This document shows positions 26,023-63,853 of a stretch of DNA of 64,000 bases, in pieces (within the stretch, counting starts at the first letter, position 1; each line of letters opens with the position of its first letter). A model generated the notes under the pieces. That model saw only the letters and a list, made by a program, of their open reading frames with translations. It was not told the DNA's origin and searched no databases. The position numbers were made by a program, and so were the translations under genes. The DNA comes from Carcharhinus longimanus (lineage: Eukaryota): positions 15,528,634 through 15,592,633 of the forward strand of contig JASCQW010000072.1 of NCBI GenBank assembly GCA_030264375.1. The letters run 5' to 3'.

Positions 26023-27311
26023 TGGCTGTATCTGTTATTTTTTGATACTGTCCTCACAATAGCTTGTCAAGTTTCATAAAGTAAACAATTAATTTATGAT
26101 GTGCGTGCTATGTGCTATGTTGTATTCTTCCTTCTGTTGGCGCAAGTAATACTCTTATCTTGCTTGAACAAACAATTTATTAATCTTGCATGTATTAAAC
26201 TTTTAATGTTAATTAATGGCCATCAACATAATGCAATCCATTAAGGCAACATTTCAGTTCATAATGTTCTGAAATTTTCTATGACATAGCAGTGCAACAA
26301 ACCATTGTAAACTACAGAAAATAGAAAACTCAGCCAACCATTAATTCTCCAAACTTCAGTTACTTTTCAGCTACACACTTCGATAATAAATCTTGCTTTG
26401 CAATTGTACAATTTTTGGTGACAAAACTTGCTGATGTGGGAGGATTCTTAGTTTTTCCAAAATTATTTTTCTGATGGCTTGAATACCCAACAAACTTTCT
26501 CCCCCTCGCAATTAATCATTTCGAGAAATATATAAAGAGCTGTGTTCTGAATAATGTTTGCTATAATTTTGAATTCCAACTTACTGTACCTGTTGCATTT
26601 TTTTGTACATTTCATTATGTTTAAGCTACTTGATAACAATGCCATAGATGCTTCATTCAATAAGTTTTACGCCTAGGCAAGGGTAGCATTATTGAATTGA
26701 GAATATGGACAATAGCAATTCTTTTGCTGCAATAATTGAAGATTAATCTGAGCTCAGCAGTGGAAAACTTTAATGCATTTAAATGTTATCTAGCTTTATA
26801 TAAGATATGTCAAATGCTGTTGCATTTCTCACTGAAGATAGCTCCTGGGTTTAAACCTACCAAAGGTTTATACTATGGTTGCTGATTATAATCTGCACTC
26901 ACTGGTAGGTAGAAGATCTAATTTTCTAAATATTTCAGCAAGTAGTCCTGCTGCATCAGGTACGTAGTGGCATTCTGATAAATAGAATTCGGGTAGAGTG
27001 CCTTCTTGAGTTAAACCAAGAGTTTGTATGTTAAATTAGAGTAAGTCACCTATACTTGCAATTGTTTTTCGAGACAAAAAGAAACAATTTTTAGATATGA
27101 AATAAGGTGTTGCATTCTTTTTTTGAACAGATGGTTGTCATTTCAAACCTGATTTAAAACTACACGTTTCTAAAAAGGATTATGTTGCTGAGGTTTTTCC
27201 TGTTGCTGGATTAGATTAGGGCCAGAAGGTCAAGTGTAGTATTGACATGCTGTGCTTGGTTGAAGTCAGTAGGTTACAATTTTGCTTCATTTGAAGCAAT
27301 TTTTAAAAGTG

Positions 27312-27517
27312 GCATCTCGGCCTTTTCGCTAAGATGCAAATGAGATCAAGCCTTAGAGGAGGAACTGTGCCTGCTCCAATTAGCTTGGATCATGTAGATC
27401 AAGCCCAAGACAGGAGGTGAGAGCCCTGTCTTAGCGGCTTGGATCGGAAATGTCTCAACTTGTTGAGACTCTGAATTGGACTTGATTTGATTGAATTGGA
27501 ATAAAAACAAAAAAAAA
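27312..27517 (+). mobile_element. U2 snRNA-headed, poly(A)-tailed short retroposed element (candidate SINE)
   Basis: 27315-27335 TCTCGGCCTTTTCGCTAAGAT matches U2 nt 7-27 at 20/21. A non-U2 body with three hairpins follows, then AATAAA at 27500 and an A tail to 27517. Confidence 0.7.
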
Positions 27518-28082
27518 CTGCATTTCTTAAAAAAAAATTGTGTCAGATACAGTCTCTGTTGGATAAAGTAAATCTAATTTAGCCAAAAGATTACTTTGTA
27601 GTTCTTGTGGAGAATACTGATGATTAGCAGTTACTATGAATTGTGTTTTATAATGGGAGGACTGATTATCATTAATTTGAGGTGATGCTTAGGGACTAAA
27701 CATAACTTCACTGTTTGGATTTTTCCACAATACTTGGATAGTTTCATTATATCAGGAGTTGCATTTTATTCGCTCACGTAGCATGTGAATTTGAATGAAG
27801 AATTTTGCACTCGATGTCGTTAAATTCTAAAGTATGTTGAAAAATGCTACCTTTACGTTTCTGGCACATGATATTAAAAGAACAGAAATGTTGGGCTTTG
27901 TGTATTATGTTCACCACCTTAAATTTCAGTTCCTGTATTTGTTTTTTGAAGAATTTGGCCGAATGCTTAATTTTAATGGGTGAAACACTTCTCTAAATTT
28001 AAATACAATACGCAACATCTCGCATGCACTTTCAGCTCCTGTCACACTTCAGTGGATGCTCCACCTCACTGCAATTATCACT

Positions 28083-28398
28083 GGGGTGGCATGGTGGCAA
28101 CAGTGGTTAGCACTGCTGCGTCACAGTGCCAGGGACTCGGGTTTGATTCTTGGCTTGGGTCGCTGTCTGTGTGGAGTTTGCACATTCTCCCTGTGTCTGC
28201 ATGGGTTTCCTCCAGGTGCTCCAGTTTCTTCCCAAAGTCCAAAGACGTGCAGATTAGGTGGATTGGCCATGCTAAATTGCCCCTTAGTGTCAGGGGCTAC
28301 GGTAAATGCATGGTGTTATCGGGATAGGGCCTGGGTGGGATTGTAGTTGGTGCAGACTCGATGGGCCTATGGCCTCCTGCAGTGCACGATTCTATGAT
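28083..28398 (+). mobile_element. HE1-type SINE, CR1-like tail
   Basis: Full head, body and tail ending GATTCTATGA. Confidence 0.87.
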
Positions 28399-29921
28399 TA
28401 GTGAGGGAATACTATGGTACGTACTGAACTGATTGTTAGGATTGGTAGGTGCTAAGATTTGATAACAAGTTTTGTCTATTGTAACATAATATTGTAATTT
28501 AAATGAAAGAGAGATAGTTATTAAATGATAAAGTATGTGGTCATGTGTTTGTAACACAAGGGGACATGGTTGAAGATGGACTAATAAATGGATTATCAAT
28601 AGTTTTCCTGCAATTGTAGCAGCTTAATTTAGCTTTTAGTGCAAGCTGTAGCTCACATTAACAAGTTCCAATCAGAGTAAAGGTGCCAGAAAAAGTCTTT
28701 TGATCGAAGAGAATCGTGAAGGCATCTTTTTCAGGGAGAAGCAATTTGAATTGGAACATGTAAACATTGTTTCCATTTTACAGTTTTATTTAAATTACCT
28801 AGCAAAAACTCCAGCTAAGCTAACTTTAAATCAGTTTTACATGGATGGGAACATTATACCAAAAGGGAAACTATTGACCTTTCAAAGCCGTAAAAGTCTG
28901 ACTAAGTCGTTAAAGAGTTTTATTATGGTTTGAAACACACTGGCTGCTTTCATCCTCTAGAGCATTGATCGGTAATCTTTTTCTCCCCAAATTGTTTTGC
29001 ATCAGGAACAAAGTGTGACCTCTGATGTGTGACGGATATGTGGTAGATACAGTGCTTTTATTTATGAGTGGATCTCCCATGGTACATTTAGGTTGTCTCT
29101 GGCAGCCTTACTCTGGACTATTGGAGCTGCCTTGAAGATTATCATATATCCGCTTCAAAACTACAACTTCACAAGATTATAGGTGATTTTTAACAATGAA
29201 CCAGGATTTTTAAGTGTTTCGTTGTGATATTTAAACATGAATCAATGACTGTTGGTGACGGAAAATTGCAAGGCTTTTGAGACTGATGATTAGAGTACGG
29301 AAGTTGCGCAGCAGTAGAGTCCTGACATAAATTGGCTTTTGTACATTCCCTGGTTAGTTGCTTAAATCTAAAATTAGTTTAAACTTTCCTTTTATGTCAA
29401 AATTTTAAATTGCTGGTGTTGCTGTTTATTTGGTGTTTGGCTGTAAAGTGATTCAATGAATCAACGTGATAATCCATTTTAATCTAACTGAATGGATATT
29501 GTTGAGTAGCCAAAAAGTCAGATTTCTTGCAGTCACCCTTTTAAAGGCTGTCCATTTTTCTTTCATTGGCATGGGGCCAGCTTGTCAAATTCCTGCAGGC
29601 ATAGACCAGTCTTTTGCACTGATGACTTCACATCAGTGCTAGAACCAATGTAGCAGCTGGGTAGGTTGAGTTTGCTTGAGATAAGTCCCTTGCTCAAGGG
29701 GATTTCGCATATTGAAATGTTTTGGCAGTGAGGGGATTTGAATCAGGAACTCCCTGGTTTATTGAAAACTAAGATTTAAAAACCGAATCAAATCAGATGA
29801 TTCGAACAATGGTGTAAAAAAAGTTGTCACGATTAACAATAGGAAACAACATATTCAGTACATGTTACAAGGGTATTATAATCATATTTGAAGCTAACAT
29901 GGCTTTGTTTGCGTGATGTAG

Positions 29922-62799: not shown

Positions 62800-63449
62800 T
62801 TTGGCAGTACTTGTAGCGGACAGTGCGACGATCCCAGTACCTATTCCATTTCCAGGATTAAACATCATGTTCTTGGGACGCGCTGTACACTCTCTCACAA
62901 GCCGGAGCTTCCTCCCGGGGGAGTGACGGGGGCTTTATAATGGTGTTTCTATTGTCAAAGCAAGGCCAATCCATAAATGCCATCTGCCTCTGGAAGGGAG
63001 GGAGGAGAGGTGGCGGGGGGGGGGAATAATTACTATAGAGACACTCCTACCGCCTGGCACCCAATCTGGGAGAGAGAGAGACTGACAGCTTCAGCCATGG
63101 TACTTACCCGAGCAGGTGGTAAACAGCAGTCACTTTGGAGCTGCCGTGTGCTATTTCTATCTAAGAAGCTTACCTAATCCAGATGTAGAAGCAGCCTTTC
63201 AGCCGCTCCGGATCCCCGGGAAGGCAAGCCGCACGCAGAAGCTGCAGCTTACACGAGGAAGAGGAAAATGTGGCTCTTTCCTCTGCGGGAGCGAATAAGT
63301 TGTTCAATACTTGATTATCGGGGCTGAAGTGTGTAGCTGTCAGGAAGTTTTCCAGGGTAGTCGTTGGGGGGAGGGCGGGGGGGAAGCCTGCACTTCAGCA
63401 GTCGGATGTATTAAGACGCTCCTTTCTCAATCCCTCGGACCCCGAGCTC
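62800..63449 (+). promoter_or_regulatory. KCNMB4: KCNMB4 promoter / 5' UTR, CpG-rich region
   Basis: CpG and GC content rise locally. CCAAT at 62966, TATA-like TTTATAA near 62935 and CATAAA at 62972, GC box GGGCGGGG near 63373. The TSS cannot be placed. Confidence 0.6.
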
Positions 63450-63785
63450 ATGGCGAAGACCAGGGTCACTTATGAGTATTCCGAAGCCGAGGATAAAAGC
63501 ATTAGACTCGGGTTCTTCCTCATCGTCTCCGGAATCGTCTCCCTCTTCATCCTGGGATTCTGCTGGTTAAACCCCACGCTGAATAACATGCAGTGCAAGG
63601 CTGCGAACTGCACCGTGGTGTCGTTGCGGCAGATCGGGGAGATGTCTGAGTGCACTTTCACGTGTGGGGCAGATTGCAAAGGGACGTCTCTCTATCCCTG
63701 TCTCCAGATCTTTGTCAATAATTCCCAAACTTACAGCAAAGCGCTGCTCCATTATGACGAACAGCAACTCATTCTAAACCCCAAG
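63450..63785 (+). CDS. KCNMB4: KCNMB4 coding exon 1, calcium-activated potassium channel subunit beta-4 ([21 protein letters not shown]...LILNPK)
   Basis: [15 protein letters not shown]-terminus, TM1 and the [19 protein letters not shown] loop. 336 nt ending at AAG|gtaaag. The gene continues beyond the window. Confidence 0.96.
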
Positions 63786-63853
63786 GTAAAGTGGGCTGTG
63801 ACATAGATTAAAGAGGGTTTGAAATAGACCTGAAGACATTTAAGAGCAGTATG

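Follow-up and report, generated by a model that had tools for sequence, protein, structure and literature searches.

The closest described systems are elements built from, or inserted into, small RNA genes. SINEU-1 to SINEU-3, short interspersed elements (SINEs) with a U2-derived head, are reported only from crocodilians in the available part of the describing paper (Kojima 2015, PMC4494074), which leaves open how they are transcribed without an internal promoter. According to the same part, they are shorter than 500 bp, end in a poly(A) tail, show recurrent 5' U2 additions, internal oligo-T and tandem insertion, often lack a target site duplication (TSD) and have no LINE-derived tail; SINEU-3 is nearly all U2, the preferred target is Mariner-N4_AMi, and a Tx1-type partner was deduced from a shared target. 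Keno (Tx1 clade) and Utopia are autonomous, protein-coding elements that insert in tandem in U2 genes with a variable 5' junction, and the U2 sequence on their 3' side starts with nt 39 (PMC4640811); the available part of that article contains no occurrence of non-autonomous forms or of sharks. U2 retropseudogenes, tailless or chimeric, are independent U2 copies with ragged 5' ends, U2 RNA being the LINE substrate (available part of PMC5322556). Alu and its monomers FAM and FLAM go back to one small RNA, the monomer preceding the multimer, and depend on the A tail for mobilization without a LINE tail (available part of PMC4494074, together with general knowledge).

The element studied here, designated family A, occurs in the window, a 64,000-nt stretch of the Carcharhinus longimanus contig JASCQW010000072.1. 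It is non-coding, shorter than 500 bp and has 3' poly(A). In the structural features tested, family A appears to work like the crocodilian SINEU: it shares the structural traits listed above, including a nearly all-U2 composition as in SINEU-3, and a shared target makes a Tx1-type element a candidate partner here as well. It is set apart by its host lineage, by U2 nt 38/39 as a recurring specific site, in place of Mariner-N4_AMi, by the preservation of both a monomer (designated family B) and the later multimer, and by transduced U2 sequence, which suggests that the source loci were U2 genes. Like Keno and Utopia, family A has its 3' junction at U2 nt 39, a variable 5' junction and tandem insertions in U2 genes, but it is 305 nt long, non-coding and mostly dispersed. 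With the U2 retropseudogenes it shares the U2 RNA substrate and ragged 5' ends, but its architecture is fixed and inherited from source elements. One small RNA origin, a monomer before the multimer and A-tail-dependent mobilization are common to family A and Alu. Alu derives from 7SL RNA and has a Pol III promoter within its sequence, whereas family A is U2-derived and its promoter is probably external. No shark U2-derived SINE was found in the literature searched, the scope of which excluded subscription journals and Repbase Reports. Family A adds a second vertebrate lineage to the SINEU-like class and seems to keep direct traces of its transcription route, namely U2-gene insertion, read-through and transduction; families B and A together suggest a monomer-to-multimer history like that of Alu.

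Structure of Family A

The preliminary description placed the 5' end of the element at 27312. This boundary had to be moved, as ~105 more nucleotides upstream of it are common to copies and begin with U2 nt 1–40 in full copies. The full unit comprises ~305 nt and an A tail and opens with U2 nt 1–40, branch-point motif included, followed by a ~68-nt spacer and an internal U2 piece. U2 positions are numbered throughout after L031, a U2 gene of the same genome located with Rfam RF00004, and the whole window copy was compared with nt 23–305 of the natural full-length family A copy L003. The features of the window copy are as follows:

27226..27517, + strand: whole family A copy, 5'-truncated by 22 nt, without TSD; 92.6% to L003
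27226..27243, + strand: true head, U2 nt 23–40; 16/18 to U2 gene L031
27244..27311, + strand: spacer with the inverted arm and a T run at 27300; without significant U2 or family B match
27247..27261, + strand: inverted wobble-type copy of U2 nt 25–39; predicted to pair with the head
27312..27335, + strand: second, internal U2 piece (nt 4–27); 22/24 to U2
27343..27395, + strand: hairpin module copy 1, degenerate U2 nt ~24–61 with a short insert; family B match
27396..27499, + strand: hairpin module copy 2, then degenerate U2 stem-loop IIb and the region to about the Sm site
27500..27517, + strand: AATAAA and A-rich tail, from the sequence; the flanks of other copies diverge beyond

In four sequencing runs, the rise and fall of read depth coincide with the ends 27226 and 27517, and loose ends at 27226 are followed by U2 5' sequence in 4/4 runs. 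The internal piece, reported earlier as 22/24 identical to U2 nt 4–27, gave the same value against L031 and is likely the ancestral head of an older monomer. Likewise, AATAAA at 27500 and the A tail reaching 27517 are present, and the fold of 27312–27517 is more stable than that of shuffled sequences (z = −3.38). Other parts of the initial anatomy were not borne out. The element was said to leave U2 before the branch-point recognition motif, but GTAGTA is present at 27236 in the true head. The TTTTTAAAA at 27300, regarded as a target, lies inside the element and is present in nearly all copies, and hence is no target site. The supposed left flanking duplicate is also internal and found in nearly all copies, and the TSD test of the window copy found none. 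The internal U2 piece of family A has the octamer motif ATGCAAAT at its end (27334–27341).

The 5' ends of 92 copies, unselected for an intact start, lie between nt 1 and nt 29 and peak at nt 1 and nt 4–9, a pattern that resembles plain U2 retrocopies. As for the features of a functional U2 snRNA gene, family A is rearranged after nt 40 and has no upstream flank common to copies. An Rfam scan of the window yielded nothing at the gathering score, and no U2 match at E ≤ 10 was present in 26800–28000. All five full family A copies scanned exceeded the Rfam U2 cut-off (50–62 bits vs. 46), so that many false U2 genes are possible in the annotation of genomes carrying family A.

The inverted arm (15 nt after the head) forms a mean of 14.5/15 pairs with it in 26 copies, compared with 5.1 when slid, and the median probability that the branch-point motif is paired was 0.92 in 31 copies vs. 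0.2 in U2. The arm is predicted to mask the motif and may spare splicing from interference by the RNA. In the MFE fold of the window copy itself, the head/inverted-arm hairpin is absent. Covariation supported 1/37 pairs in the alignment; its absence is expected for decaying copies.

Copy Number, Age and Target Site Duplications

Genome-wide exact matches to the head, middle and tail motifs numbered 1131, 977 and 1226, respectively, with 0 for the reversed controls. The search of the genome with the element gave 1021 candidates, of which 40 were scored and showed 91–94% identity over nearly the full length; thus, the element is multi-copy. Against the alternative that the body is a one-off never joined to a U2 head elsewhere, 29/30 sampled matches to U2 18–37 were family A copies with the same head junction. 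Capture–recapture on the lists for contig C1 (58 and 68 entries, overlap 15) gave ~4,200 family A copies, a minimum estimate, since assembly gaps affect many copies. The 106,159 first-look U2 candidates are rough and were left out of the copy number, and summed contig depth likewise yields no copy number.

Non-CpG divergence from the majority sequence had a median of 4.6% in 50 near-full copies (range 2.8–21%) and was 5.4% in positionally sampled copies (n = 22), with CpG-site divergence of about 25%; the value for the window copy is 5.1% (non-CpG). No young copy was found among the 50, the least diverged being 2.8% from the majority, and older subfamilies with diagnostic changes are present. 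Both age and decay are evident in the copies examined.

The expectation that copies share the U2 head, A tail and TSDs held for the first two, and for TSDs in a minority of copies. TSDs of 10–19 nt were detected in 12/70 copies with both ends readable vs. 0/300 mismatched pairs (9/48 copies in a smaller earlier set); a clear TSD is absent in 58/70, and the window copy has none. In the runs of three other organisms, single-copy contigs join unique flank to element on both sides, and these flanks differ by 1–4%. No empty site for the window insertion was seen in the three, and no joint skips the element. Since flank–element joints are present in all three and none bypasses it, the window insertion predates the split of these organisms.

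Origin of the Body from U2

The body of the element had been described as not U2. According to the comparisons made here, it is degenerate U2, which can be seen through the intermediate family B, an older relative located beside some family A copies. The search with family B gave 2846 candidates, of which 40 were scored. It is about 215 nt long plus an A tail, with a median divergence of 12.8% (29 copies), and is colinear with U2 from nt 1 to about 169. The Sm-site-like T run is kept, and stem-loop III still folds (−14.4 vs. −14.8 kcal/mol) despite many changes. The U2 heads of family B copies (L142, L205, L213–L242) are varied.

The score of family B vs. U2 nt 32–191 was reached by 0/2000 shuffles, whether the majority sequence or either of two natural copies was used, and the same result (0/2000) was obtained for window 27404–27506 and window 27351–27395 vs. 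family B. A profile of natural family B copies matches U2 nt 41–191 (E 1.3e-11), window 27396–27492 (E 1.4e-11) and window 27308–27395 (E 5.7e-07). Direct comparison of the window body with U2 is weak, its score being reached by 90/2000 shuffles, and the corresponding profile search was negative. The degenerate stem-loop IIb lies at 27452–27469 in the window copy. For the spacer, 1040/2000 shuffles reach the score vs. U2 and 1429/2000 that vs. family B; the spacers of four old copies also had no significant match to either (best 31/2000). At the level of sequence, family A reads as a B-type element that received a new U2 head and spacer, with the hairpin module duplicated and the 3' part shortened. 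An intermediate form with an internal U2 piece, one module and a shortened 3' end with AATAAA is present at L101:2026-2179.

Insertion at U2 nt 38/39 and the Probable Partner LINE

The motif A7 + U2 39–52 had 7 exact matches and 52 at up to two mismatches, compared with 5 for the control. Thirty of the 52 loci were read and comprised 11 family A copies, 2 family B copies, 8 LINE 3' ends, a single bare A run within a U2 unit and 8 loci without assignment. Family A is inserted at U2 nt 38/39 in two different U2 gene types and in an old subfamily (L060, L063, L245), and LINE inserts are found in U2 units with a long gene-like flank (L061, L248). The latter two (L061 at G000:C32:64.14 Mb) consist of U2-variant gene units with gene-like spacers and LINE insertions at nt 38/39; one of their units has only an A run at nt 38/39 and then a LINE piece after nt 58. 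One LINE junction extends to U2 nt 58. The segment U2 39–52/53 lies between tandem LINE copies (L253, L256) and between tandem family A copies (L247), and it forms the end of the extra heads in L004, L028 and the family B copy L142. Its recurrence between tandem inserts and at extra-head ends is consistent with one endonuclease making a 14–15 bp duplication.

The probable partner LINE is abundant (2907 candidates in the genome search) and contains RVT_1-type and zf-RVT parts, seen as RT-side and zf-RVT fragments. The best named relatives of its protein are from the sharks Cetorhinus and Hemiscyllium. The zf-RVT and RVT_1 relatives fit a placement of this LINE in the L1/Tx1 group; it is provisionally called Keno-like here, by its shared target. 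A family A copy was present within 1.5 kb at 4/30 LINE loci, some stacked at a single site. L171, L149, L010, L154 and L159 each have the SINE and the LINE nested in one another or stacked at one site.

Comparison of the 3' end with the LINE, proposed earlier as a check, revealed no LINE with the family A tail: all 30 tail-motif loci were family A, several of them cut by gaps, and no significant tail match was found in 34 LINE loci. LINE and family A ends are alike only in that one older subfamily has a short end of AATAAAGT type. Most copies of both family A and the LINE are dispersed. A U2-like target motif after the A tail was found in 3/39 dispersed copies vs. 92/1244 (p = 0.76); this extraction missed some copies, and a repeat on 75 flanks showed no clear motif. 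A SINE and a LINE, or two LINEs, also occur at matching positions of other repeats (L144/L105 and L161; L159 and L165), hinting at secondary preferred targets in these repeats.

Traces of U2 Genes as a Probable Transcript Source

In L251 (family B) and L246 (family A), the element is followed by U2 39–53 or 39–149 and then by a second A run, while the 1.5 kb upstream lack any U2 5' part. Such a pattern indicates 3' transduction, presumably by read-through from a source embedded in U2. L249 and L257 also end at U2 nt 53 plus an A run, and L060 and L244 end 39–40 nt past U2, where seven plain U2 retrocopies end. The plain retrocopies L036–L057 often extend 39–60 nt into the 3' flank of the gene, which suggests precursor U2 as their template.

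At the 5' side, L071/L176 carries 22 nt (20/22) of the 5' flank of the real U2 gene directly before +1. An extra U2 piece upstream of the head was found in 4/101 heads, and the head of L095 reaches U2 nt ~49. The U2 context predicted by the preliminary description was found in part: U2 nt 39+ lies downstream of several copies, but no copy with the full U2 promoter was detected, the U2 gene flank pattern matching only the U2 gene and L176. Among copies starting at nt 1–3, the flank matched in 1/34. The main U2 gene is located on a 3.5-kb contig, and the U2 array has probably collapsed in the assembly, so the missing promoter copy carries weak force.

Several other loci were recorded. L034 contains tandem divergent U2 genes with a ~1045-nt unit and an octamer about 250 nt upstream. 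The tiny contigs L032, L033 and L058 carry U2 genes of quite different sequence type, possibly contamination. At L063:1969-2087, a 5S rRNA copy (Rfam 86 bits) is joined 2 nt ahead of the U2 head in a family A copy that itself sits in U2; this is one case.

Proposed Mechanism and Alternative Explanations

Family A is a ~305-nt non-coding, mostly-U2 retroposon with, by estimate, at least 4,000 dispersed copies; its sources probably lay in U2 genes, used the U2 Pol II promoter and were mobilized by a Keno-like LINE of the Tx1/L1 type. The general idea of the preliminary description, a non-autonomous U2-derived retroposon with a U2-gene source and an L1/Tx1-type enzyme, gains support from the copies at U2 nt 38/39, the LINE ends at the same site and the transduced U2 sequence, although the anatomy behind it was wrong. 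We infer transcription from the U2 promoter. The LINE endonuclease would nick U2 DNA at 38/39 and near nt 53. An insert at 38/39 would be transcribed from U2 +1, the host gene thus supplying the head, and the RNA would be polyadenylated at the AATAAA of the element or continue through the remainder of U2. New copies would mostly end up at ordinary sites that lack a promoter and decay there, while re-insertion into U2 would give new sources and added heads. The inverted arm may hide the branch-point motif, so that the RNA would leave splicing undisturbed.

Several results weigh against this explanation. Insertion into U2 pseudogenes could also account for the single-headed copies in U2; the full-promoter copy is missing; most copies are dispersed without a U2-like target motif, and the TSD is unclear in the 58 copies noted above. 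In addition, the LINE and the element have no real shared tail, covariation is confined to a single pair, and the 50 near-full copies include no young one. A more far-reaching version can be proposed only tentatively: an independent all-U2 shark SINE lineage, first monomer and then multimer, that homes to U2 nt 38/39 by means of the Keno-like LINE and uses the host U2 promoter, with a head renewed by the host and a hairpin hiding the branch-point motif. If true, a transcription route for snRNA-headed SINEs would be worked out for the first time, in a lineage new to all databases.

Following the model for the crocodilian SINEU, the copies could instead be transcribed from unrelated upstream promoters and acquire U2 heads by template switching, the insertions in U2 being by-products of the LINE target. 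Template switching was proposed for SINEU in the available part of PMC4494074; the extra or longer heads of family A end at varied U2 positions (38, 40, 49 and 52), and the 5S rRNA piece before the head in L063 looks like a template-switch chimera. We regard this explanation as unlikely, as taken alone it does not account for downstream U2 without upstream U2 in L251/L246, for the gene flank in L176 or for the fixed +1 limit.

The colinearity of family B with U2 nt 1–~169, its Sm-site-like T run and its folding stem-loop III would also suit copies that are not a selfish element but processed pseudogenes of a functional small RNA gene, a U2 variant specific to sharks. This seems quite improbable: family A is a multimer that has been rearranged and has no intact Sm site; a parasite is suggested by the A tails, the succession of subfamilies, the insertion into U2 and the stacking with the LINE, and no conserved source locus is present among the loci read.

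A conventional Pol III SINE, with internal A and B boxes evolved from U2, is very improbable. U2 nt 17–24 are A-box-like, and each hairpin module begins with a match to GWTCRANNC, a permissive B-box consensus, but loose box counts are near those of shuffles (5 vs. 3.3; 6 vs. 2.4, the latter inflated by the duplicated module). The element has four T runs of 4–5, one at nt 14–17, and AATAAA precedes its tail. T runs of this length would stop Pol III. The same argument from internal T runs is made in the available part of PMC4494074. Finally, a one-off template-switch chimera or chance match has a negligible probability, being refuted by about a thousand exact matches for each of three motifs and by the fixed structure.

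Other Features of the Window

A tRNA-type SINE, which we take to be HE1-like, occupies positions 28085–28400. Positions 63315–63806 hold an exon for the beta subunit of a calcium-activated potassium channel (Pfam CaKB, E 4e-36).
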